A stretch of 64,000 nucleotides of DNA. It comes from a virus. The notes below the pieces were generated by a model. The model ran no database searches. It had not been told where the DNA came from and saw only the letters and a list, made by a program, of their open reading frames with translations. The stretch is from IMG/VR virus record IMGVR_UViG_3300036402_000045, positions 25,783 through 89,782 of that record; one strand, given 5' to 3'. The first letter of the stretch is position 1. Each line of letters starts with the position of its first letter. The translations under genes were made by a program, and so were the position numbers. This document shows positions 1,280 through 48,479 of this stretch, piece by piece.

Positions 1280-1750
1280 TCAGCGCAGATTTTGGAGAAT
1301 CGCTCTGCGCTCCATGAGCAGGATGCCCAAGAGGTTCGAGCCTGCCCAGTGTCCGGAAGGCGTGCGCGTCATGCCCCAGATCCGATCGCCCCAAGTGTTG
1401 CCTTCGACCAAGATGGCGTTGCCCGTGGCAAGCAGATCGTTAGCGAGCGTTTGGGTTTCCGAAAACTTGCATGACAGAGCGAAGCGCATGACTTCGATCT
1501 TCCGTTGCTCCCAGTCATCAGCGAGCGGAGCCTTGCGACCGAGCTTCTTGGCATTGCCCGCGTTGCTTGCCGTGAGAATGCGCTGTTGCCATTCAGGATC
1601 GTCTGTCTTCGCTGCCTGATAGTGATGTTCCACCGTGGCGTAAGGAACGCCCCTGAGACGATAAGGAGAGGCATAGAAGTTCGACAGGAACCCGTGCGGT
1701 CCGTCCAGCCGAAAGTCATCGATGATCGTGTAGCCCAACGCCTTCTTCAC
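1280..1750 (-). CDS. NADAR (YbiA-like) family protein
   Basis: FLSNFY, YATVEHHYQAAK, AKKLGR, LVEGNTWGDRIWG and GSNLLGILLM motifs. Confidence 0.92.
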   Translation of the reverse strand: MKKALGYTIIDDFRLDGPHGFLSNFYASPYRLRGVPYATVEHHYQAAKTDDPEWQQRILTASNAGNAKKLGRKAPLADDWEQRKIEVMRFALSCKFSETQTLANDLLATGNAILVEGNTWGDRIWGMTRTPSGHWAGSNLLGILLMERRAILQNLR

Positions 1751-2016: not shown

Positions 2017-2273
2017 TTCAGAATCTCGATCTCGTTGTCGTAGAAGTAGTAGATGTCGTGGAACCCGTTGATGCGGTCCATCAACCAATCGTGAACGGGA
2101 ATCCGAATCTCCGGACCCTGCCACGGACAAAGCAGAACCTTGTTCGGGTACTTGTCGGAGTCGTTCTCCAACAGAACGCCCTCAGACCCCTCGAAGAAGC
2201 GTCCAGAGGGATCGTTGTATGCAACCCGGACCCGAATGGCATCGGGGCTTGCAAGAGCCTCTTCGGGCGTCAC
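2013..2273 (-). CDS. hypothetical protein
   Basis: 86-aa ORF with translational coupling on both sides. Confidence 0.65.
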   Translation of the reverse strand: MTPEEALASPDAIRVRVAYNDPSGRFFEGSEGVLLENDSDKYPNKVLLCPWQGPEIRIPVHDWLMDRINGFHDIYYFYDNEIEILK

Positions 2274-4027
2274 AGGAGATCCCGAATGTTCTGGAGCGTG
2301 ATGCGCTCGATCTGTCGGCCACCGTCTCGCTCGATGGTCCGGTTGGCAAGCGCCCGCTTGTAGTTCAGGAGCGCTTCGATCCTCTGCTCGATCGTGTCTT
2401 CGGCCTGAAGCTCGATGACGTTGACCGTCGTGGCAAGAGCCTCCAGGCCACGCAGACCGCCCGCTGCGGAACGCCCGATGGCCTGATCGTTACCTGCCGG
2501 TGTCCAACCCTTGTCGGTGAAGACGACGTAGGTGGCAACGCCAAGGTTGATGGCCTCGCGGTTCGCATCGATGGTTCCGATGTAGAGCTTGCAATCCTCG
2601 TCGTTGTTGAACCTTCGGATTTCCTCCTGCCGACGACGCAGGTTGATCTCACCGGTGACATACGCCGGGGAATAAGCCTCAAGCTCCCGCTGGATGATGC
2701 GGGTTGCCTTGCTCCACTGGGAGAAGATGATCGCCTTCTCACCGTTGGCGACAAGCTCCCGAACGATGTCCTTCAGTTCGACGATCTTGGCCGAATCCTT
2801 CGACCCGCCGTAAAGCTCCGGAGAGAAGCAAGCCTGCTTCAGCCGGATGATCTGCGGAAGAGCACCGTTGATGTTTCGGATTTCGCCGTTGTCCATGCGA
2901 AGGATGAACTCGTCACGGATCTCGTTGTAGAGCGCCCGAGCTTCACGGGTCAGTTCGATCACGCGGGGAGCGATGATGACCTTCGGAAGATCCTTGAGCA
3001 CCTGATCCTTGCGACGACGCAGGGAGATGTTCTGAATGAAGTCCCGAAGCTCGCCCATCGGCTCCGGGCGGTAGCCAACCGTGGCACCGCCGTTCTTGAT
3101 GGAGATCGCGTCCACGAACCGGTCGTAGATCGGAAAGTCTTCCGGGTAGAGCTTGTGCAGAACGCTCCAGATCTCTTCCGGACGATTCAGGATCGGCGTG
3201 CCCGACATCATCAGCCAACGCTTGCCCTCAAGCTGGAAGAAGCCACGCGTGACCTGAGCATCCGGAGTCTTCACCCGATGGTGCTCATCAACCACGATGA
3301 AGTCGTACTCGAATCCGAAAAGCTCTTCGTTGGCGAACTCGTATCCGATGATCTTCTTGTGAACGTTGCCGTCCTCGTAGATCGGCTTGGCCCGGATCGC
3401 CTCAAAGTTGACGACGGTGATCTCGGCCCGCTTCTCGATCTGTGCAGAGCGCTCTGCGCGTGTTCCGTTGACGACCTGAACCTCGAAGTCGAACTTGTCC
3501 GTGGCTTCAGATTCCCAGTTGAACTTCGCGCTGTTCGGGCAGACGACGAGCGTGCGGAACTGCTTGCCCTTCTTCTCGGCCTTCACCGCCATGATGCGGA
3601 TCGCAGCCAGAAGCATGATGGTCTTCCCTAGACCCATCTCGTCATTGAGAAGATCGATCTCTTCCTCCAGGATCTTCCCGACCGCAACCTTCTGGAAGTT
3701 GTAGAGCTTGCCTTCGAAGCCCGGAATCCGAAGCTTCGGAATCGGCATATCCGCAAGCCGCTTCTCTTCGGCTCGCGTTAGCCGTGCGTAGACGCCCTTC
3801 GAAAGCTCTGCCATCGGGAACGCCAACGACAGACGATCGAAGTACCGCATGTTGAACCGGAAGAGCCACTTGCTCAATTCCTGGTCGTACTCCGCAACGG
3901 GATCGGTGCCGAGAGGAAGGATCTCGCGCATGATGACGCTCTGCGCCTCGTACTTCTCGCTGGAGTCACACATCAAGACGATGTGCTTGCCCCTCGGATC
4001 GTTCTTCTTCGACAAGGTGATCTTCAC
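2270..4027 (-). CDS. SNF2-family (SF2) helicase/translocase
   Basis: DEMGLGKT (Walker A), VVDEHH, SGTPILN, IIFSQW, EAINL motifs; GTG at 4027 is 7 nt after a -10 box. Confidence 0.92.
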   Translation of the reverse strand: MKITLSKKNDPRGKHIVLMCDSSEKYEAQSVIMREILPLGTDPVAEYDQELSKWLFRFNMRYFDRLSLAFPMAELSKGVYARLTRAEEKRLADMPIPKLRIPGFEGKLYNFQKVAVGKILEEEIDLLNDEMGLGKTIMLLAAIRIMAVKAEKKGKQFRTLVVCPNSAKFNWESEATDKFDFEVQVVNGTRAERSAQIEKRAEITVVNFEAIRAKPIYEDGNVHKKIIGYEFANEELFGFEYDFIVVDEHHRVKTPDAQVTRGFFQLEGKRWLMMSGTPILNRPEEIWSVLHKLYPEDFPIYDRFVDAISIKNGGATVGYRPEPMGELRDFIQNISLRRRKDQVLKDLPKVIIAPRVIELTREARALYNEIRDEFILRMDNGEIRNINGALPQIIRLKQACFSPELYGGSKDSAKIVELKDIVRELVANGEKAIIFSQWSKATRIIQRELEAYSPAYVTGEINLRRRQEEIRRFNNDEDCKLYIGTIDANREAINLGVATYVVFTDKGWTPAGNDQAIGRSAAGGLRGLEALATTVNVIELQAEDTIEQRIEALLNYKRALANRTIERDGGRQIERITLQNIRDLL

Positions 4028-4034
4028 AAGCACC

Positions 4035-4064
4035 AATCTAACAGCTTCGGAATGTTTACGTCAA
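4035..4064 (-). promoter_or_regulatory. sigma70-type promoter with operator-like spacer
   Basis: TTGACG-N18(taaacattccgaagctgt)-TAGATT. Confidence 0.7.
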
Positions 4065-4081
4065 GCGAATATTCGGAAACC

Positions 4082-4204
4082 CAGAGAGGGTCCGGTCGCC
4101 TTTCCCCGTCCGATCCCCCGCCAAGGGAATCGTGGGTTAGTGAACGCTTGGGGAAAAGCGCAGGCGACCTTGATCTCCGAAAGGCTGGAGACTGACCCTC
4201 TCTG
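4082..4204 (-). ncRNA. candidate structured non-coding RNA (~122 nt)
   Basis: Perfect 11-bp terminal stem 4082-4092/4194-4204; nested stems 4094-4101/4162-4169 and 4101-4107/4150-4156; hairpins 4111-4132 and 4174-4191; CGTATCA just upstream on the minus strand. Confidence 0.65.
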
Positions 4205-4209
4205 AGACT

Positions 4210-4216
4210 TGATACG
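4210..4216 (-). promoter_or_regulatory. CGTATCA promoter-like element
   Basis: Same heptamer precedes several start codons by 6-7 nt; here it precedes the structured RNA. Confidence 0.6.
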
Positions 4217-4220
4217 CAGA

Positions 4221-5060
4221 TCAGCGAACCTCGGAAGGCGTGATCTCGCTGCGTAGAATCCTCGCTCTGGCCCTCTCGATGCGCTCTGCGGCTGCGCGAG
4301 CATCGGCCTCGGCCATCTGTCGGCGTTGGGCCTCCAGACGCTCACGGCGCTCTCTGGCGATGCGCTCTTCCTCTGCTCGAACAGCCACCACGTTGACATA
4401 CCGGACCGGTGCCTGAATTCGGTACCGCGGGTGCTCCACTTGGCAGAAGTCTGAAGGGCAAGCGCCCTCCGTGCTGCCTTCGGACTGGGCGTTGCAATGA
4501 AAGCAACGAGGCGTGAACTCGATCGTCACGGCCCGCTGCGGGAAGTGAAGTGAACGCTCCGAGAAGAGCCGATCGCGGCCGATGTCGTGAACGAGCATCA
4601 GAAGCTCTTCGGCCATCGTCACGTACGTCTCTTCCGCATCAGAAGCGAACCGCCGCCACAGCTTCATCTCACCGCGACGCGTGATGTAGGCAAACGCCTT
4701 GTAACGCCCATCGATGTAGCGCTTGAGCACACGCTGACCCGTGAGATCGCCCGACGTAACGAGATGCACGTTGTAGCGGTGAGTTTCGGAAATCCCCGTA
4801 ACCTCGTAGACGCCATTGGGAACGTTCCAGCCATCGAACTCTGTCGCCACGTCATCGATGGAACGACCGGCAAGCTGCGTTGCCAGAGCCTCGACCGCTG
4901 CCGTCTGCTCCACGGTAAGGGTCAAGCTCGATCCGAGAACGTCGGAGTACCGCTGCATGTCTGCATGAAAGCGAACAGCCGGATCACTCAGGATCGAGAC
5001 AACCTGCGGGAACGCAGAGAACCACGCGGGATCGAGGTTGGTGATGTTGTAGGTCGGCAT
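4221..5060 (-). CDS. hypothetical protein with CxxC pair and C-terminal coiled coil (leaderless)
   Basis: 279-aa ORF; CFHC...CPSDFC; ATG 6 nt after a -10 box. Confidence 0.75.
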   Translation of the reverse strand: MPTYNITNLDPAWFSAFPQVVSILSDPAVRFHADMQRYSDVLGSSLTLTVEQTAAVEALATQLAGRSIDDVATEFDGWNVPNGVYEVTGISETHRYNVHLVTSGDLTGQRVLKRYIDGRYKAFAYITRRGEMKLWRRFASDAEETYVTMAEELLMLVHDIGRDRLFSERSLHFPQRAVTIEFTPRCFHCNAQSEGSTEGACPSDFCQVEHPRYRIQAPVRYVNVVAVRAEEERIARERRERLEAQRRQMAEADARAAAERIERARARILRSEITPSEVR

Positions 5061-5066
5061 ACAGAG

Positions 5067-5095
5067 ATCCTAAGGGATAAACATTCCGAAGTCAA
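5067..5095 (-). promoter_or_regulatory. sigma70-type promoter, spacer motif in inverted orientation
   Basis: TTGACT-N17(tcggaatgtttatccct)-TAGGAT-N6-ATG. Confidence 0.75.
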
Positions 5096-5121
5096 GACGG
5101 AGATTGCTAAGCGGCAGATTT

Positions 5122-5520
5122 TCAGCGATCGGAATAGAGGCTGTTGTGAGCCTTCACCCAATCACCATCAGCGATGAGCTTGCCACGGGGCTTACCGAGG
5201 TAGTGCCACGCAGAGCACTTGATCTCGGTGCCTCTGATCGGGTCGTGAGCAACCACGTCCCAAAGGGCATAGCCCGCACCGCGCTCCATACGGTCGATGC
5301 TCTTCCACGACGGACTGTTGTGTCGGAACGTCAGGACATCGCCGGTGATGGTGCCCGACTGATCGAGCTTGGCGACTGGGTAGCTGCCGAACTCAGAGAC
5401 GAAGTAGATCTTCCCCTCGATGGTGCAGTTCGGAATGATGTCCTCGTAGCCACCACGGTCGTTCCACGCGTTCGGTCGGAGCGTTCCGTACACGAAGCAG
5501 GAGATGAGATGGTCGCTCAC
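5122..5520 (-). CDS. gamma-glutamylcyclotransferase (GGCT/AIG2-like)
   Basis: FVYGTLR signature, YP motif, IDRME. Confidence 0.85.
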   Translation of the reverse strand: MSDHLISCFVYGTLRPNAWNDRGGYEDIIPNCTIEGKIYFVSEFGSYPVAKLDQSGTITGDVLTFRHNSPSWKSIDRMERGAGYALWDVVAHDPIRGTEIKCSAWHYLGKPRGKLIADGDWVKAHNSLYSDR

Positions 5521-6032
5521 TTCTGAGCCGCCTTTTCGAACAGGTCGATGATGACCGCAACATCGAAGGTGACGGTGTTGCCTTCGTTGCCTTGGAAGAA
5601 GGTGTAGTTCTCGTCTTCGACCAGACGAGTACCCGTGAGCGTCAGAACTTTCCGCTCAAACTTGATCCGCTGACTCTCTGATTCGATCCGCTTCAGAAGG
5701 TACTCTCTTTCGGAATCAAGCTGTTCTTGAACCCGCTCACGGAACCGCTCCGTCATCGGTGACAACGACTGGGGATGAGCAAGAACAGGAACCCACGTCA
5801 TGTTGTGGACGTTGAACGCCGCAAGAGCGACCTTCGTGGCTTGGCGCTGGACGCCGTACTCATCGGTGTAGCGCCCCTTCTTGTCGGCCTTGACGTACTC
5901 CTTCGTCTTGGCGTCCCGATACCAACGCTCGATGTCAAGAACGAGCGACAGGAACGGACGAGAGGACGAGTACCGACCACCGGGTCGGGAGTAGATGACC
6001 TCCCGACCCTGCTCGATCTCCGAAAGCTTCAT
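5517..6032 (-). CDS. hypothetical protein
   Basis: 171-aa ORF coupled to both neighbours. Confidence 0.7.
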   Translation of the reverse strand: MKLSEIEQGREVIYSRPGGRYSSSRPFLSLVLDIERWYRDAKTKEYVKADKKGRYTDEYGVQRQATKVALAAFNVHNMTWVPVLAHPQSLSPMTERFRERVQEQLDSEREYLLKRIESESQRIKFERKVLTLTGTRLVEDENYTFFQGNEGNTVTFDVAVIIDLFEKAAQK

Positions 6033-6968: not shown

Positions 6969-7460
6969 TCATGCATCCTCGGTTTCCTTGTCACCAACCA
7001 GAAATCTCGGACCATTGACAGAGACGATCGCCCAACGGAACCAAAGCACCGTCTCGCAATCCCATCCGTAGAGATCGTGAGGCTGTGAGTGGCGCGTACG
7101 CCACTGACCCTCTTCGGTCAGGTGCATACCGTCGTACTCCCGAGCCATCGCTTCGAAGTCAAGACCGGTGGTATACCGATCCCCCACGCCGAACCGCTTG
7201 TGCAGATCATTGAGATCCGCAACGGTGTCAACGACAGCGAGGTTCGGGTTGTCGATCGTCTCCAGATCCCAGAGCGTGAACGGCGGTCCACCGAATTTTT
7301 CGGAAACACACCAGTCAACCCAATGGCTCTCGTTGGTCGGATGAGGGGGAGAAGTCCACAACCCACCACTGAGCGGCTTCTTCCACGGATGCGTGCAATT
7401 CACGATCGGCTTGAACGACTGATAACGAGGCTTCTTCACGCCTTGGAAGATGACCTTCAC
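6969..7460 (-). CDS. hypothetical phage protein
   Basis: 163 aa; KPLSGGLWTS, LDFEAMAREYDGMHLT, LYGWDCET. Confidence 0.75.
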   Translation of the reverse strand: MKVIFQGVKKPRYQSFKPIVNCTHPWKKPLSGGLWTSPPHPTNESHWVDWCVSEKFGGPPFTLWDLETIDNPNLAVVDTVADLNDLHKRFGVGDRYTTGLDFEAMAREYDGMHLTEEGQWRTRHSQPHDLYGWDCETVLWFRWAIVSVNGPRFLVGDKETEDA

Positions 7461-9977: not shown

Positions 9978-10113
9978 CCGATTTCCGAAAGTTTCTCGGT
10001 CCTCTTGTTGATACGTCAGACGCGCTCGCGGTGGTTTTTCCACCACTCCCGAACCAAGACAGATCCAATGCTTCCAATCCCCCATCCGAACATCACCAAC
10101 AGGATCTCCCGCA

Positions 10114-10341
10114 TCACGCGGTCACTTCCTCGAACTCATAGCAACCCTTCAGAAATCGGGAGACGGCAGCGCCGACTGATCCGACCGGGTTGGCGGCGAC
10201 CTGCGAGATGTTGAGGAACACGGACTCTGGAACATCGGCGTACCGATAGACCCGTCCATTGGCGAACGTGACGACGCAATCGGTCCCGTCATACTCGATG
10301 ACCTGCACGCTGGAACTGTTGGCGACGGTGATGGTGGGCAT
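10114..10341 (-). CDS. KTSC domain protein
   Basis: SSSVQVIEYD...VTFANGRVYRYADVP...SVG pattern. Confidence 0.8.
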   Translation of the reverse strand: MPTITVANSSSVQVIEYDGTDCVVTFANGRVYRYADVPESVFLNISQVAANPVGSVGAAVSRFLKGCYEFEEVTA

Positions 10342-10361
10342 AGCGACCTTTCGGAAAGTGG

Positions 10362-10673
10362 TTAGAAGGAGTAGTCGTGGAACTTGTGGCGACCAGGCAC
10401 CAAACGGGTTCCGGTGTGCATGGACTGACCGCGCTGGACCCACTTGCCGTTCGAGCGCAGCGTGAAGATGATCTTGCGACCGTTCTCGTCTCGCTCATAG
10501 CTGTAGCTCTGGTCTTCGCTCATCCCGTGCGTGTCGGTTCGAGTGGCGGTGTCCTGCTGCCACGTCACGGACTTGCGAGAGGGAGAAGCGCCCACGATGG
10601 TTCCGGCGTGACGGTCGGACCACATGCAGATCGTTGCGCCTTCCCCGATCACGAAGCTCTGAAGGGTTTCCAT
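10362..10673 (-). CDS. hypothetical phage protein (leaderless)
   Basis: METLQSFVIGEGATICMWSDRHAGTI...HDYSF; ATG 6 nt after a -10 box. Confidence 0.75.
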   Translation of the reverse strand: METLQSFVIGEGATICMWSDRHAGTIVGASPSRKSVTWQQDTATRTDTHGMSEDQSYSYERDENGRKIIFTLRSNGKWVQRGQSMHTGTRLVPGRHKFHDYSF

Positions 10674-10679
10674 GCCCTC

Positions 10680-10708
10680 AGTCAACATCACTTCAGAATG
10701 TTTGTCAA
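10680..10708 (-). promoter_or_regulatory. sigma70-type promoter with operator-like spacer
   Basis: TTGACA-N17(aacattctgaagtgatg)-TTGACT. Confidence 0.65.
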
Positions 10709-10754
10709 CAGGAAATCTCACGGAACGTTCGGAAGGTCGGCGTATCATCCGAAC

Positions 10755-10861
10755 ATGACGAAAGAGGCAGCCATGTAACCGCCGCCCGAAAGGGCGGATT
10801 TCCTCTCAGTAGTCAACGAAGGGCAGGCGACTTGGGTGCCACTCAATCCCTGCCCTTCGTC
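10755..10861 (+). other. structured leader or small RNA with a 7-codon uORF
   Basis: CGTATCA 10741-10747, N7, then ATG (MTKEAAM*, 10755-10778); GAAA-loop hairpin 10782-10797; 12-bp stem 10816-10827/10849-10860. Confidence 0.45.
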
Positions 10862-10902
10862 GCGTCTTGACACCGATCCGGTTAGCGCTCCTTCGGAAAG
10901 GC

Positions 10903-11055
10903 ATGAGACAAGACGACCAATCCATACGGGAGATCAAGCGCCGGTGGGAACGCGAGGCCAAGGAGATGACGGACGATGAACTGGTTCACCGCATCTACTC
11001 CCGAAGGGCCAACCAGTACGACCGGGCCGAGGCCAAGAAGCGGAATCTCGTATGA
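10903..11055 (+). CDS. small hypothetical protein
   Basis: MRQDDQSIREIKRRWE...; preceded by GGAAAGG. Confidence 0.55.
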   Translation: MRQDDQSIREIKRRWEREAKEMTDDELVHRIYSRRANQYDRAEAKKRNLV

Positions 11056-11208
11056 CCCGCCTTCTCTACCGTTTCGGCCAGGATACCGACTTCAGAAAGT
11101 TCTCCTAACTACCATATAGATAGTTAGTGGATTCGATCGTTCTTCCACTCGGTACTACGTAGCCCGCGGTTATCAAGATACGCAATACCTTGATGTGGAA
11201 AACCGCGT

Positions 11209-11586
11209 TCAAGCTCTCTTCCGTTTGGCCTCGGCTTTGGGACGCTCGTAGACGTGAACCAGAATGGCAACAATCTTTCCGTCTTCACGGACCTGTTCTC
11301 GTCGCACATAGCCACGCTCAACGAGTTCCTTCATGGCCGACCTGACCGAGAACTCTCCATCGGTCTTGGCTTTGGAAAGTTCCTCTACAAAGAAGTGCCA
11401 GTCATCCGGTCGGCTAAGCATGAACGCGAGCAAGCCCGTGGCTTTGAAGCTCAAGAGCGGATCACGCAGAGTGTCGTTCTCTATGCGTGTGTACGTCTCA
11501 TGCTTCTTGATTCGGTGGATGGTCTTCGAATCGAGCGTCATCTGTCTGACGGCAAGGGAACTGACCTTCTGATTCTTGGCTGTCAT
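11209..11586 (-). CDS. winged-HTH phage replication-initiator-like protein
   Basis: YTRIENDTLRDPLLSFKATGLLAFMLSRPDDW...SAMKELVERGY; RBS AGGAG. Confidence 0.8.
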   Translation of the reverse strand: MTAKNQKVSSLAVRQMTLDSKTIHRIKKHETYTRIENDTLRDPLLSFKATGLLAFMLSRPDDWHFFVEELSKAKTDGEFSVRSAMKELVERGYVRREQVREDGKIVAILVHVYERPKAEAKRKRA

Positions 11587-11771
11587 GTTGTATGCTCCTG
11601 CTTGGTATCGGGACAGGTGCCACCGTACACGGCCCCCACTATCCGAGCGCTCGTCGCTAACGGAGAAGGGGGCCGTGTCGCGTCTACCCTCGGCCACGGA
11701 GCCTGGTCGTTGTGTGTCCCGTAGCGACGGGATCAGCGACCGGCTCCACCTACTTTGCGTATCGTTGTGAT

Positions 11772-11912
11772 GCGGGAGGACTAAGAGCACACCGAGGCTC
11801 TGGCGAGCGCTTACAACACCAGGCCGAATCCATCGCTAGGCCAGGATGGAAGGCAAACACTCATCCCGGTAACGGGTTCGCTCAACGTCCAGAGATAGAG
11901 GCGTCCTCCCGC
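11772..11912 (+). ncRNA. candidate structured non-coding RNA (~141 nt)
   Basis: Perfect 10-bp terminal stem GCGGGAGGAC/GTCCTCCCGC; inner stems 11798-11803/11889-11894 and 11805-11809/11879-11883; starts 7 nt after CGTATCG (11758-11764). Confidence 0.6.
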
Positions 11913-11927
11913 TCTACACTTTCGGAT

Positions 11928-12098
11928 ATGCGGCGACAGAAGCTCGATCCGGATCTCAAGGCCAAGCTCAAGGCCGCACGTCTGCTTCGGAATGAGCGCC
12001 CGTCGTTAGGACTGAAAACCCGTCTACACGACGAGGTAGAGCGCAGACCCAACAGCCTTGACGATCCCGACACGACCGCAAGGGACGCTCTGGATTAG
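11928..12098 (+). CDS. small basic hypothetical protein
   Basis: MRRQKLDPDLKAKLKAARLLRNE... Confidence 0.45.
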   Translation: MRRQKLDPDLKAKLKAARLLRNERPSLGLKTRLHDEVERRPNSLDDPDTTARDALD

Positions 12099-12119: not shown

Positions 12120-13394
12120 ATGACCGATCTCGACGGGGCGCTTGTCGCCTATGCCGTCCGTCGTCCGCTTGGGTTGACCGAGCTTCAGCGCGCTGGCATC
12201 ACAACTGAGTACCTGACCGATGACTATGCGAAGGCATGGGATTGGGTCAACCGCATGAAGCGCCAGCACGGTGCGATCCCTTCGCTTCGGGTCGTGCAGC
12301 AGCGCTATGCGGATCTCGATCTCACACCCGCTCGTCAACGAGACGTGCCGATGCTGGTTTCCGAAGTGAAGCAGCGGAAGAAGCTCATCGATTTCCACGA
12401 CGCAATCGAAAACGCTTCCTCTACCGCTCGATCGGTGGACGACATCGACCGTGCGCTCTCGCAGCTTCAGGCCCAACTCAACAGCCTCAACGTACAGGGG
12501 TTGGGCAACCAGTCGATCGTTGACCTGTTCAGCCGTTCCGCCAAACGACGGATGATGAAGGATCTGAAGCAGCGCCGGTCCGGGAAGATGATCGGCATCC
12601 CCACGGGGCTGAAGCGCTTCGACTTCGTGACGGGAGGACTCGTTTCCCGAAAGATGGTCGTCGTCATGGCGCGTACCGGCGTCGGCAAGTCATGGCTCAA
12701 CCTGCTCTTCGTTGCGAGCGCTGTCCTCAACGGCAACAAGGTCGTGCTCTATCCGTTGGAGATGACGCTGGAGGAAACGGCTCTTCGCCTCTACACGATC
12801 TTCAGCCAGAAGATGTTCCGAGGAAGCGACACTCTGAAGAACCTCGATCTGACGATGGGACGCTTCAGCCCTCGCAAGGTCGTGCGCCTGCTCAACATGC
12901 TGGAGGACAAGTACGAAGGTCAGTTGTTCGTGGCCGACGTTGCGAGCCTCAGCGATCCCTACACGCCCGAGCGGGTGGAGTCTGAAGTTGAGCTTTACAA
13001 GCCCGACATGTTCTGGGTCGATTACCTCACGCTCCTGAAGGCCCCGAACGGTCGCAGCGGTGCGGAGGACTACACATCGATCAAGGTGCTCTCCAACGCC
13101 ATCAAGGGGATCGCACAGCGACAGGGGTGTGTCGGTGGTGCATCGGCTCAGGTGAACCGCGACGCCATGAAGGTGCGAAGCTTCATCCCCCGTGTTGAGC
13201 ACATCAGCTACGGCGATTCCATCGGCCACGATGCGGATCAGATTCTTTCACTGGGGAGGAAGGATGAGCACCTTTACTACGGCCTCGTCAAGAACCGTGG
13301 CGGTCCCGAGATCGGGCGCACGCGCATGAAGGCGTTCTTCGATGAAGGACGTATCGAAGAGGACGAGCAACAGGAGTCCGAGGATGACGATTGA
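12120..13394 (+). CDS. dnaB: DnaB-like replicative helicase
   Basis: GIPTGL, ARTGVGKS (Walker A), LEM, VDYL, AQVNR, SIGHDAD, KNRGG. Confidence 0.92.
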   Translation: MTDLDGALVAYAVRRPLGLTELQRAGITTEYLTDDYAKAWDWVNRMKRQHGAIPSLRVVQQRYADLDLTPARQRDVPMLVSEVKQRKKLIDFHDAIENASSTARSVDDIDRALSQLQAQLNSLNVQGLGNQSIVDLFSRSAKRRMMKDLKQRRSGKMIGIPTGLKRFDFVTGGLVSRKMVVVMARTGVGKSWLNLLFVASAVLNGNKVVLYPLEMTLEETALRLYTIFSQKMFRGSDTLKNLDLTMGRFSPRKVVRLLNMLEDKYEGQLFVADVASLSDPYTPERVESEVELYKPDMFWVDYLTLLKAPNGRSGAEDYTSIKVLSNAIKGIAQRQGCVGGASAQVNRDAMKVRSFIPRVEHISYGDSIGHDADQILSLGRKDEHLYYGLVKNRGGPEIGRTRMKAFFDEGRIEEDEQQESEDDD

Positions 13395-17924: not shown

Positions 17925-18344
17925 GTGACCTTGGCACAGACGGCGGTAGCTACGGATTGGGCGGAACGCTTCGAGGCGGCACAACCCGCGTACATGGGGA
18001 AGATCAGACGGTTCGCACGCCAGAAGGCGTCGATGCGGTATATCCCCGGTTACGACGAGTGCGACTTCGAGAACGACTTGCTCGAAGTGCTCTGGATGGC
18101 GTGTCGAACGTACGACCCGAACAAGGGTGCGAGCTTCAACACGCTGTTCTGGCAGATGAGCTTCAACCACGTCATCAGCCTCCACCGAAAGGCGTCTTCC
18201 CAGAAGCGGGTCGGGGACTACGAGCGCATCAGCCTCGATGTCGAAGAGATCCGGGAAGCCATTTCCGAACTTCGGGCCGATCCCTCTGCGGAGGATGAAT
18301 ACCTGGCCCGTCTTGCGGTTACGGAACGCTGGCGGTCTTCCTAA
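17925..18344 (+). CDS. short sigma-factor-like protein (region 2 only)
   Basis: DFENDLLEVLWMACRTYDPNKGASFNTLFWQMSFNHVISLHRK matches sigma70 region 2; 139 aa with no recognisable region 4. Confidence 0.75.
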   Translation: MTLAQTAVATDWAERFEAAQPAYMGKIRRFARQKASMRYIPGYDECDFENDLLEVLWMACRTYDPNKGASFNTLFWQMSFNHVISLHRKASSQKRVGDYERISLDVEEIREAISELRADPSAEDEYLARLAVTERWRSS

Positions 18345-18366: not shown

Positions 18367-18573
18367 GTGGACGAAGACCGGAAGATCGCAAGGCTGGAAG
18401 AGAAGCGGGCATCCCGCTTCCTGGATGCCCTCGCAAGAGATCCCTTCGTTTGCATCATCGTCACCAACGACGGCCAAGTGCAGATCGTCAGTTCGCAGAT
18501 TTCGGAAGAACACCTTCTGCGTATCAAGAAGGTCTTGAAGGAGATCGAAGACGACAATGCCCTCCAAGACTGA
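18367..18573 (+). CDS. hypothetical protein (leaderless)
   Basis: CGTATCA (18354-18360)-N6-GTG. Confidence 0.65.
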   Translation: MDEDRKIARLEEKRASRFLDALARDPFVCIIVTNDGQVQIVSSQISEEHLLRIKKVLKEIEDDNALQD

Positions 18574-19823: not shown

Positions 19824-20405
19824 ATGCCGAAGAAGAGCGCAGCAGACGCCCTCAAGGAAGCCTTCAACGACTTCATCGATGAGCTTGCCGCCGCCGGTCC
19901 TGCCGACGACGACGAGTTCGAGGACGATGAGGATCTGGAGGACGAGGATTCCGAAGAGGAAGAGGACGACGATGAGGACGAGGACGAAGAGATCCCCGTC
20001 TACACCGAGAAGCAGCTTGCGAAGAAGAGCAAGGAAGAGCTTCTGGTCATCGCCAAGGCCCTCGATCTCGACACGACCCGCAAGCGCGAGAACACGCTGC
20101 GGACCATGATCCTCGAAGCCCAGTCCGAAGAGGATGAGGACGACGAAGAAGAGTCCGAAGACGAGGACGACGAGGACTGGGACGACGAGGACGATTCCGA
20201 AGACGACGAGGACGATGAGGACTCGGACGACGACGAGGATGACGACGACGAGGACTGGGACGAGGACGACGAGGATGACGAGGACGAGGCTCCTGCCAAG
20301 TCCAGCAAGGCGTCCAAGTCCGCGAAGAAGTCCACCAAGAAGGCCGCTGGCACCCCCAAGAAGTCCACGGGGGCGAAGAAGGCCACCGCACGGAAGCGCC
20401 GGTAG
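19824..20405 (+). CDS. very acidic protein with central HeH-like domain and Lys-rich tail
   Basis: Two D/E tracts flank YTEKQLAKKSKEELLVIAKALDL; tail AKSSKASKSAKKSTKK... Confidence 0.8.
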   Translation: MPKKSAADALKEAFNDFIDELAAAGPADDDEFEDDEDLEDEDSEEEEDDDEDEDEEIPVYTEKQLAKKSKEELLVIAKALDLDTTRKRENTLRTMILEAQSEEDEDDEEESEDEDDEDWDDEDDSEDDEDDEDSDDDEDDDDEDWDEDDEDDEDEAPAKSSKASKSAKKSTKKAAGTPKKSTGAKKATARKRR

Positions 20406-20862: not shown

Positions 20863-20894
20863 AAGAGAGCAGGGGCTTCGGTCCCTGCTCTCTT
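20863..20894 (+). terminator. terminator-like hairpin
   Basis: AAGAGAGCAGGGGC-TTCG-GTCCCTGCTCTCTT. Confidence 0.65.
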
Positions 20895-20915: not shown

Positions 20916-21701
20916 ATGACCGAAGAGATCACCTTCCGGAGTGATTTCGCCATATCTGTTGTTGACGAGATGGCGAATGACGAGTCGGTGTTGCGGGCCA
21001 TGCTCGTTGCCACCGACAAGGTTCCTACTGGCTCTGCCGAAACCACGGCCAACACGGGACGGATCAACGCCCTGATGCGAGATCGGCACGGCACTCCGTT
21101 CGAGCACAACAGCATCATCTTCTACGCGGAGGCCCCGATCTTCGTCTTCCGTGAGTGGCACCGCCACCGCATCGGAATCTCGATCAACGAGCAGAGCGGG
21201 CGGTATTCCGAACTTCCGCCCATGTTCTACGTCCCGCCTCGCCATCGTCCTCTCGTCAAGGTCGAAGGCACGAAGCAAATGGCCTACGAAAACGAGCTTG
21301 CGAGCGATGAGCAGTACGCCAGAAAGATCGCCGGAGACAAGCGGGTGATGGCAGCGGCCTATCGGGAGTACGAACGGCAGCTTGAGGACGGGATCGTGAA
21401 AGAGTCCGCTCGCAACTGCCTTCCGGTCAGCATCTACTCAAAGATGTTCTGGACTTGCAACGCCCGTTCGCTCATGGCGTTCCTGTCGCTCCGTGTTCGC
21501 AAGGGTCCGTTCTGGAACCAGACCGAGACGCTTGACGGTGTTCCTACGGACTACTGGACGCAAGACCCCGAAGGTTCGGTTTTCCCGAGCAAGCCTGCTT
21601 GGGAGATCGATGCGTGTGCTCAAGCGATGGAGCAGTTGTTCGCAACGCTCATGCCGGTCACGCACGAAGCGTTCCTGAAGCACGGTCGCGTTGCTCCATG
21701 A
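20916..21701 (+). CDS. thyX: FAD-dependent thymidylate synthase
   Basis: HGTPFEH and REWHRHRIGISINEQSGRY (RHRx8SxRY-type motif); leaderless after CGTATCA 20903-20909. Confidence 0.93.
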   Translation: MTEEITFRSDFAISVVDEMANDESVLRAMLVATDKVPTGSAETTANTGRINALMRDRHGTPFEHNSIIFYAEAPIFVFREWHRHRIGISINEQSGRYSELPPMFYVPPRHRPLVKVEGTKQMAYENELASDEQYARKIAGDKRVMAAAYREYERQLEDGIVKESARNCLPVSIYSKMFWTCNARSLMAFLSLRVRKGPFWNQTETLDGVPTDYWTQDPEGSVFPSKPAWEIDACAQAMEQLFATLMPVTHEAFLKHGRVAP

Positions 21702-22428: not shown

Positions 22429-22655
22429 CCTACTGGCGAGTTCTATTCGTTGGTGGTCAAGAGATGTTCCTGGCAACCAAGTCCGAAGACACCGACATCA
22501 TTCCGGCCCTTGGCGAAACGGAGTTCATGTTCGTCACCGCAGACGATCACAATTCTCCTGTTCTCATTGGGCCAACCCGCAACCTCTTGACGATCACCAA
22601 GGCATCGCAAGAGATGTATGACGAGTTCACCCAAAAGAACGGAGTTCTGAAGTGA
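22425..22655 (+). CDS. hypothetical protein
   Basis: GTGA-coupled ORF. Confidence 0.6.
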   Translation: MTYWRVLFVGGQEMFLATKSEDTDIIPALGETEFMFVTADDHNSPVLIGPTRNLLTITKASQEMYDEFTQKNGVLK

Positions 22656-47832: not shown

Positions 47833-48479
47833 TACGAAGTCCGGGTGCTCCCGCCGACCGTCCCACCGCCGCCACCAGTGGAACCACCAGTGGTCGTGCC
47901 TGCTCCGGAAACTGCGGAACCGGTGTGTGCGGGTGACGAAGGGGAAACTTCCGATGTTGCGGGCTGCTCGTTCTGAACGAGATCGACAAGAGCCTCCTGA
48001 AGCTCTTCCTGGTTCATCTTCGTGCGGCCCTTGATGTTCTTCTCCTTGGCGTACTCCAGCAACTCGGCGCGCGTGGCGTCGGAGCTTCGGATCTTCGCCA
48101 AGATCTCTTCACGGGCGTTGGCCTGTGCAGCGCCAGCCCGAGCGCTCTCGAACGCAGCATCGAGAGCGGCCTGACGAGCCTCTTCCTCTTCGGCCAGCGT
48201 CTTCTGCTGGCCCTCGCGAAGACCCATGAAGGTCTTCTGGTGATCGTTGAGCGGAGTGCGGACGTAATCCGTCACGTCCATGAACGAGTCGTTGAGGATC
48301 AGGTGCTCCCAAACCTCGTCCGAGATCTCGCTGAACGGCTCCGCATCGGTGTCGATCGTCCAACCGTTCTTCCGGTTGAACTCGACATGCACGGGAAGAC
48401 CTTCGGAAAGAACGTCACTGAAGGTGTCACCCTTCAGAAGCTCCTTCACGTCAGCCGTCCCCATATACTTCAGCTTCAT
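47832..48479 (-). CDS. hypothetical virion-region protein with Rho-N-like domain
   Basis: TRAELLEYAKEKNIKGRTKMNQEELQEAL. Confidence 0.7.
   Translation of the reverse strand: MKLKYMGTADVKELLKGDTFSDVLSEGLPVHVEFNRKNGWTIDTDAEPFSEISDEVWEHLILNDSFMDVTDYVRTPLNDHQKTFMGLREGQQKTLAEEEEARQAALDAAFESARAGAAQANAREEILAKIRSSDATRAELLEYAKEKNIKGRTKMNQEELQEALVDLVQNEQPATSEVSPSSPAHTGSAVSGAGTTTGGSTGGGGGTVGGSTRTS

Follow-up and report, generated by a model that had tools for sequence, protein, structure and literature searches.

A non-coding gap of 184 nt (4037-4220), or 156 nt when counted from the -35 hexamer of the downstream promoter, separates a 279-aa gene from an SNF2-family helicase gene on the minus strand of a phage genome. 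The question is whether this gap encodes an RNA in its own right, serves one of its two neighbors as a leader or a unit end, or has no function at the RNA level. The preliminary description took it for a non-coding RNA with its own promoter, for example a polymerase decoy like 6S RNA or Ms1, a protein sponge or an anti-defence RNA. The part of this proposal that stands is a non-coding, structured and strand-specific stretch that belongs to no Rfam family and lies behind a promoter-like motif; the decoy idea does not, and the sponge and anti-defence roles are guesses. The structure and its place behind the motif are real and unlikely to be a product of chance. The reading that we tentatively prefer, with somewhat less than even confidence, is that the candidate is a stable phage RNA which is made separately and binds protein. 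As the argument is built on a single sequence, its weight is moderate.

Setting and fold of the intergenic gap

The window, i.e., the whole 64-kb stretch of DNA that was analyzed, spans positions 25783-89782 of a virus record that is 89,782 bp long and has a G+C content of 57-61%; the phage genome is estimated to be 88% complete. A single sequencing run is listed as containing this DNA, a soil metagenome DNA run that is probably its origin; no RNA run is listed. No match was returned by a blastn search of GenBank phages with positions 3000-6000 of the window, and the SNF2, portal-like and capsid-like proteins share 22-35% protein identity with their best GenBank phage matches. Judged from these comparisons, the phage seems to represent a clade without a close cultured relative. 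In full-text literature searches, no description was found of the CGTATCA motif discussed below, of this phage clade or of this RNA.

The features of the locus are collected in Table 1. Searches of Pfam and PHROG with the 279-aa gene returned no match. The SNF2 gene probably starts at GTG 4027, because its homologues begin with MKI..., and no Shine-Dalgarno sequence is present upstream of this codon. The host-type promoter of SNF2 contains a TTCCGAA-type operator, and a second host-type promoter is found at 5095-5067 (TTGACT-17-TAGGAT). Both promoters end 6-7 nt ahead of the start codon of their gene, and these early genes therefore also appear to be leaderless.

Table 1. Features of the locus and the sigma-like gene, in window positions
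Feature	Position	Strand	Remarks
Structured core	4082..4204	-	Three-armed; 43 pairs within 123 nt and two branch points
Closing helix, 5' arm (AGAG... style)	4194..4204	-	GACCCTCTCTG; 11 bp with 4082-4092
Closing helix, 3' arm (...CUCUCUG)	4082..4092	-	CAGAGAGGGTC; followed by GGUUUCC
Hairpin 1	4173..4192	-	6 bp with 8-nt loop AGCCUUUC; pair probabilities 0.85-1.0
Arm 2 with inner three-way junction	4094..4169	-	8-bp stem GGTCGCCT (4094-4101) / AGGCGACC (4162-4169)
Hairpin 3	4144..4161	-	6 bp, loop UUCCCC; loop alternatively pairs with GGGGAA at 4102-4107
Hairpins 4/5	4105..4136	-	Include the 9-bp apical hairpin 4111-4132 with two U-G pairs
Unpaired junction UCACUAA	4137..4143	-	Longest open stretch besides loop 1
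CGTATCA, promoter-like -10-type motif	4210..4216	-	TG at 4217-4218
Predicted transcript 5' end (A4203 or G4202)	4202..4203	-	Placed by the 6-7 nt spacing from motif to start codon
Host-type promoter of SNF2, TTGACG-18-TAGATT	4035..4064	-	Agrees with the consensus at 9 of 12 positions; second hexamer preceded by TG
SNF2-family helicase gene	2270..4027	-	ORF 2270-4036, likely start GTG 4027; Pfam SNF2-rel_dom, 2.9e-36
279-aa gene	4221..5060	-	Function unassigned; upstream of the candidate; stop codon 4 nt before CGTATCA
139-aa protein resembling sigma-70 region 2	17925..18344	+	Candidate CGTATCA reader; family of 11 proteins

The gap had been described at the outset as almost fully base-pairable, and a comparison with shuffled sequences bears this out. 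The minus strand of 4082-4204 folds with -65.3 kcal/mol (z -5.53), and none of 200 dinucleotide shuffles folds as well; when the motif is included (4082-4216), the values are -65.4 kcal/mol and z -5.39. The plus strand reaches -59.1 kcal/mol at a z of -3.24, and one of its 200 shuffles folds as well. It folds less well because four of the 43 pairs are G-U on the minus strand and become A-C mismatches when read on the plus strand, and within these folding models the asymmetry favors an RNA read from the minus strand. All 43 pairs have a probability of at least 0.77, and the minimum-energy and centroid structures are identical. The 11-bp closing stem, the side hairpin, the second stem and the apical hairpin named in the preliminary description are all recovered at the same positions. 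The third pairing, TTTCCCC/GGGGAAA, which had been listed as a competitor, is possible at a cost of 3.7 kcal/mol (-61.6 versus -65.3). The exposed bases are confined to loops of 8, 6 and 4 nt and the 7-nt junction, and nearly all others are helical.

The energy of the candidate was also set against a genome background of 125-nt segments, taken at arbitrary frames in steps of 25 nt on both strands of the whole 89.8-kb genome (7,174 folds). The means are -39.0 and -40.4 kcal/mol, with a standard deviation of approximately 6.7, and the lowest value is -64.4. The candidate thus lies below every one of the 7,174 segments, with the qualification that it was optimally framed and the segments were not. 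After regression on G+C, its z is -4.0, and 3 of the 7,174 segments, which again lack the optimal framing of the candidate, are as extreme. Two other extreme spots in the genome have z values of -3.9 and -4.2, and one of them is inside a gene. From this comparison, the fold of the candidate stands at the very top of this genome, yet it is not alone in its class. The core contains no ATG or GTG. The stretch 4082-4204 is non-coding and, in the folding models, exceptionally structured in a strand-specific manner.

For the complements of the loops, no significant antisense target was found. The complement of loop 1 occurs four times elsewhere, in one case 15 nt before a gene start. As a separate observation, the junction UCACUAA lies within a 13-nt same-sense match (E 0.21) to genome positions 10828-10840, a repeat-rich non-coding region outside the window.

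The CGTATCA motif and a sigma-like protein

The preliminary description placed the beginning of the paired region behind CGTATCA at about the distance at which this motif precedes start codons elsewhere, and the spacing is confirmed here. Five bases (AGUCU) separate the motif at 4216-4210 from the closing helix, and an ATG or GTG without a Shine-Dalgarno sequence follows the motif by 6-7 nt at 15 of its 21 sites in the whole genome. The window holds 10 copies against 3.47 expected, a number reached in none of 100 shuffles. A TG is usually located one or two bases upstream of CGTATCA, and no -35 element is conserved across the sites. In light of its sequence context, CGTATCA is read as a -10-type promoter element that would give leaderless mRNAs. 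A preprint on Thermus phages describes -10 elements that are class-specific and give transcripts most of which are leaderless (bioRxiv 10.64898/2026.04.20.719267).

When the same spacing is applied to the candidate, the predicted first base, A4203 or G4202, falls on base 2 or 3 of the closing helix, and the predicted RNA begins flush with a helix of 9-10 bp. Such an arrangement is rare at random positions: a helix of at least 11 Watson-Crick pairs that starts 4-10 nt downstream is found at 23 of 3,000 control positions, and one of at least 10 pairs at 44 of 3,000. Among the 33 CGTATCA or CGTATCG sites of the genome, four are followed by a helix of at least 10 pairs. The second of these four (candidate 2, 11758-11912) lies before a DnaB-like helicase gene, and its fold is no better than that of shuffled sequences (z -1.29).

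A potential reader of the motif is the 139-aa protein listed in Table 1. Eight of the 11 members of its family match Pfam Sigma70_r2 (best E 2.8e-8), and the copy in the window gives a sub-threshold match to Sigma70_ECF (E 0.015, 15.6 bits versus a cut-off of 21.1). Compared with the PDB, the family profile scores best against FliA and CnrH, two sigma factors, and does so weakly (E 0.02-0.07). A direct scan of the whole genome did not detect Sigma70_r2, and the resemblance emerged via the family members. A small sigma-like protein with region 2 alone would fit a promoter class that lacks a -35 element.

Relatives and the syntenic site

Relatives of the SNF2 protein are numerous, with 763 at E <=0.001 among 8,000 scored and the closest at 82, 77, 74, 71 and 71% identity. 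The protein itself gave no pattern match in IMG/VR. With the SNF2 alignment, 39 pattern stretches and two confirmed loci were obtained from IMG/VR, of which only L001 (53% identity) is a true relative. The JGI metagenomes yielded at least 599 stretches and, among the matches listed, four loci; one is the same contig as L001, and three contain only the 3' part of SNF2 and are thus without the upstream region. The GTDB genomes yielded 176 stretches, none of which was confirmed. The single usable relative from the IMG/VR, JGI (among the matches listed) and GTDB scans is an 81,346-bp genome, G001, in which SNF2 is 53% identical. In a tblastn comparison, 39 of 108 crude ORF predictions match this genome, and the order is conserved apart from one inversion.

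At the syntenic site of G001, the region between a 218-aa ORF and SNF2 holds a host-type promoter, a 98-aa ORF and a hairpin, and the candidate is absent. The 218-aa ORF is a possible counterpart of the 279-aa gene (P0121), with a weak BLASTP match (E 0.19). Since G001 carries a different, self-contained cassette here, the slot is variable, which is consistent with an accessory RNA gene. The idea that the candidate is a remnant of one of these genes was rejected: with the 98-aa and 218-aa ORFs as queries against 3500-5600, the best tblastn match (E 0.019) is on the wrong strand and falls over SNF2.

The relative uses CGTATCA in the same way, before leaderless GTG starts. Additionally, divergent CGTATCA/CGTATCG motifs at 7161 (+) and 7106 (-) of G001 are followed by structured stretches with z values of -4.06 and -2.45. 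These two units are found ahead of the G001 orthologue of the DnaB-like helicase gene, the place that candidate 2 occupies in the window; the helices that close them are short and, by the random-position control, not significant.

Searches with the RNA itself returned no homologue. A blastn search of G001 with short words gave only chance-level matches. A covariance model built from the single sequence found only the candidate in 185,699 bases of retrieved loci (including G001) and in its own genome, and nothing in 151 Planctomycetota genomes, a search that was run without a positive control. Among the contigs of the soil metagenome DNA run, a comparison at 80% likeness gave one identical contig, three short unrelated pieces and no variants. 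None of three conceptual proteins from open frames that cross the RNA is present in the protein collection.

A pattern of the two exact 11-mer ends had no match in IMG/VR. In the GTDB genomes, the two 11-mers, 95-125 nt apart, occur four times, on four contigs of three Planctomycetota MAGs. There they form the ends of long palindromes that belong to a low-copy family, and the three genomes have 3, 4 and 8 end matches. One flank of these palindromes has a few more bases in common with the candidate; the palindrome interior is unrelated to it and has no Rfam match. By a rough estimate, chance alone would give about two matches to 22 fixed bases in 596 Gb, and the matches, four in number, amount to one family. 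The match is probably coincidental and was counted neither as homology nor as a host assignment.

Competing readings and known structured RNAs

The structure might instead be a cis-acting 5' leader, in which case the SNF2 operon would have CGTATCA at 4216 as an additional, later promoter and the fold would stabilize the mRNA or make the polymerase resistant to termination. A canonical intrinsic terminator was tried as an identity for the structure and rejected: a consensus scan of 3800-5300 returned no terminator-like site, and the tail after the helix, GGUUUCC, has no U-tract. With no canonical terminator between the structure and SNF2, transcription may continue into SNF2. In favor of a leader, mRNA is known to be protected from 5'-end-dependent decay by a helix at its very 5' end. 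The same tandem order is found at 10015-9906, where CGTATCA is followed by a host-type promoter and then by an amidoligase gene with a Shine-Dalgarno sequence, so tandem promoters of this kind seem to occur in the phage, and a leader function stays alive. Two further CGTATCA sites, at 18520 and at genome 22166, likewise drive leadered genes with a Shine-Dalgarno sequence. However, a CGTATCA transcript reaching SNF2 would have a leader of approximately 176 nt and then a start codon without a ribosome-binding site; because SNF2 has its own promoter 7 nt before a GTG that lacks a Shine-Dalgarno sequence and is placed for leaderless initiation, such a transcript would be expected to translate SNF2 poorly. 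The comparable 100-nt leader from CGTATCA at 10015 is unstructured (z -0.99), the three-armed fold goes far beyond the needs of end protection, and G001 has no such leader before SNF2. A leader function is therefore considered unlikely.

The second alternative is an elaborate hairpin at the end of a transcription unit, which would be the terminator or 3' stabilizer of the 279-aa gene and would leave CGTATCA incidental or inactive. Hairpins with an AGAG.../...CUCU stem are located at unit boundaries at 20864-20893 and at genome positions 5502-5540, 21391-21438 and 20180-20234, and the closing helix shares their style and begins 17 nt after the stop codon. A comparison with the boundary hairpins of this phage and of G001 shows agreement in the sequence style of the stem base and in a length of 10-13 bp, whereas their loops measure 4-31 nt and the candidate encloses 101 structured nt with well-determined helices of their own. 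The order also differs: three CGTATCA sites are preceded by such a hairpin, but here the motif comes first and is spaced for a start at the first base of the helix. Other early units adjoin without a hairpin, as in the 61-nt gap 5061-5121, and the missing U-tract noted above also counts against a terminator. We regard a unit-end role as rather improbable.

The weakest alternative is inert or selfish DNA, either a MITE-like insertion with 11-bp terminal inverted repeats or a DNA-level signal without an RNA function; perfect inverted ends, absence from the syntenic site of G001 and the two 11-mers shared with the Planctomycetota palindromes would fit it, but no target-site duplication is visible, the element is single-copy in the phage with none in G001, its interior is branched rather than one long palindrome and is unrelated to the Planctomycetota elements, the four 11-mer matches make up one family where about two are expected by chance, and the G-U asymmetry favors a minus-strand RNA, so this origin is very unlikely.

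The preferred reading, a stable RNA of the phage that is made separately, draws on the exceptional strand-specific fold, the enriched CGTATCA, the sigma-like family, the promoter that SNF2 has of its own, the unstructured leader at 10015 and the cassette in G001. Against it stand the tandem layout at the amidoligase gene, which fits a second, later SNF2 promoter equally well, the z values near -4 elsewhere in the genome, the poor fold of candidate 2 and a G001 genome without the element. In the proposed mechanism, RNA polymerase, probably directed by the small sigma-region-2-like protein, would begin transcription 6-7 nt behind CGTATCA, at A4203 or G4202. The transcript is predicted to fold into a compact three-armed structure in which the first ten bases pair with the last ten. 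The closing helix may end or trim the transcript and would shield both ends from exonucleases, which would leave a stable RNA of approximately 122-125 nt. Because almost all bases are locked in helices, the RNA would act in trans by binding protein rather than by long antisense pairing, and its protein-bound role could be that of a decoy, a sponge or a scaffold. The element lies between two early genes in a slot of variable content and would in this respect resemble a 'moron' made of RNA.

A broader proposal, which is speculative and doubtful as a whole, is that a separate regulatory layer exists in this phage clade. A sigma protein with region 2 only would read the -10-only CGTATCA and drive both leaderless mRNAs and compact RNAs with a closing helix at the first transcribed base (candidates 1 and 2 and the two units of G001). 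As stable particles acting in trans, they would bind proteins of the host or the phage when the phage switches to replication, and would constitute an undescribed class of phage RNA effectors. If the candidate RNA is made and stable, the few structured non-coding RNAs known from phages would gain a new, unrelated family, in this case from a soil phage clade. The motif, the leaderless genes and the sigma-like protein together provide a testable model of phage gene timing, in which the candidate RNA would be a clean reporter for the CGTATCA promoter class.

The comparison with known RNAs agrees with the earlier statement that the structure is neither a tRNA cloverleaf nor a simple terminator. 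ARAGORN predicted no tRNA gene in the whole window, and no match to the tRNA clan was found in Rfam. At gathering thresholds, none of the 4227 models of Rfam 15 matched the window, and a search of 3900-4400 relaxed to E up to 10 was equally empty, so no Rfam family claims the candidate. A bacterial Y RNA was considered and rejected, since TROVE (PF05731), the domain of its Ro partner protein, has no match in the genome (an estimated 88% complete, so that absence is not absolute), in a search that found its positive controls, and no Rfam match exists. A retron msr/msd was rejected as well, with no match to the reverse transcriptase family PF00078 (RVT_1) in the phage genome. With no TROVE protein and no reverse transcriptase, both readings are without a partner.

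6S RNA takes the form of a long, unbranched rod in which a large bubble at the center imitates an open promoter. The candidate resembles 6S RNA and Ms1 as a small, stable, highly paired RNA with paired 5' and 3' ends; however, its 123-nt fold is three-armed, with two branch points and no rod or central bubble, and even the relaxed Rfam search (E up to 10) gave no match to a 6S model. The polymerase decoy proposed in the preliminary description is thus not supported. Phage small RNA genes that run from promoter to terminator are similar in that they are short non-coding intergenic units with their own promoter-like signal, a terminal helix and no Rfam family; they have no sequence relation to the candidate, the fold of which rests on one sequence.

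Further likenesses in outline exist to RNAs with joined ends or a place at a transcript start. The phi29-type pRNA is approximately 120 nt long, with a helix of its 5' and 3' ends, a three-way junction and its own promoter, which starts at that helix. The candidate agrees in size, end helix, three-way junction and a promoter signal at the helix. A pRNA model is present in Rfam, and the candidate has no Rfam match; to our knowledge, pRNA occurs only in small phi29-like phages, and the candidate belongs to a 90-kb phage. The put RNAs of HK022 are two simple stem-loops that act in cis, by antitermination, on the polymerase that made them. The candidate would likewise be a structured RNA at the very start of a phage transcript, ahead of a long operon, but differs from put in its 11-bp end-to-end helix, its three arms and the separate promoter between it and the operon.

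The CGTATCA motif and putatively leaderless genes

Across the whole genome, an ATG or GTG lies 6-7 nt beyond CGTATCA, with no Shine-Dalgarno sequence, at 15 of the 21 sites. This arrangement suggests that the phage has a class of promoters yielding leaderless mRNAs. The motif usually has a TG a short distance upstream throughout the genome, and the putative promoter class is shared with the related phage G001. The early genes behind two host-type promoters seem to be likewise leaderless, because these promoters end 6-7 nt before the start codons. A 14-mer built around TTCCGAA is common to the spacers of both promoters, where its two copies have opposite orientations. Two genes downstream of the SNF2 gene, a NADAR-domain protein (Pfam, 3.2e-29) is encoded at window positions 1280-1750 on the minus strand.

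A Sigma70_r2 match in Pfam is obtained for 8 of the 11 members of the family of a 139-aa ORF (best E value 2.8e-8), and the window copy gives a sub-threshold ECF-sigma match only. The protein looks like a minimal sigma factor with region 2 only, and this putative factor could be the reader of the -10-only CGTATCA motif.

Positions of the features (genome, coordinates of the whole virus record; L012-L015, loci from Planctomycetota MAGs)
Feature	Sequence	Position	Strand	Description
CGTATCA sites	window	10741, 12106, 18354, 18954, 20903, 26559, 32857	+	
Host-type promoters	window	4035-4064; 5067-5095	-	TTGACN, 17-18 nt, TAnnnT
139-aa ORF	window	17925-18344	+	family of 11 proteins
AGAG/CUCU hairpin	window	20864-20893		stem start AGAG, stem end CUCU, then (T)CGCGT
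AGAG/CUCU hairpins	genome	5502-5540; 21391-21438; 20180-20234		as above
Candidate 2	window	11758-11912	+	CGTATCG, 7 nt, then 10-bp end-to-end helix
Divergent CGTATCG/CGTATCA sites	G001 (L007)	7106; 7161	-; +	within 6970-7290
Long palindrome	L012	2792-2916		
Long palindrome	L013	6069-6212		
Long palindrome	L014	760-888		
Long palindrome	L015	1714-1859		

Palindromes, repeats and other folded stretches

The Planctomycetota loci, retrieved with the two 11-mer ends of candidate 1 (the folded stretch between the 279-aa gene and SNF2), carry a low-copy family of 125-146 bp palindromes with conserved ends in Singulisphaera, Planctomycetaceae and Gemmataceae MAGs. The palindrome ends are flanked by TTAAC/GTTAA-like bases, and no Rfam family is matched by these palindromes.

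Two further minus-strand stretches of the window fold strongly: 22505-22650 (z -3.87), a gap between plus-strand genes that folds on the antisense strand, and 48335-48475 (z -4.16), which is intragenic. Upstream of the window, genome positions 10300-11500 comprise approximately 1.2 kb of non-coding DNA with many short repeats (TAGG-rich and GGGGTTC words), which may be an origin or a genome terminus; CCACAGG iteron-like repeats are present near genome 13451-13515.

Structures associated with CGTATCA-type sites

Three of the AGAG/CUCU hairpins are followed 9-25 nt downstream by a CGTATCA site, and these hairpins look like terminator-promoter cassettes without U-tracts. The overall fold of candidate 2 is not better than that of its shuffles (z -1.29). 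A 56-aa ORF (11928-12095) lies downstream of it and is not preceded by a Shine-Dalgarno sequence. Also downstream is the gene for the DnaB-like helicase (12120-13394; phrog_19, 2e-46). In G001, a multi-hairpin stretch follows each of the divergent sites, with z values of -2.45 (minus-strand site) and -4.06 (plus-strand site), and these structured sites, located upstream of the DnaB-like helicase orthologue, are the positional counterpart of candidate 2.
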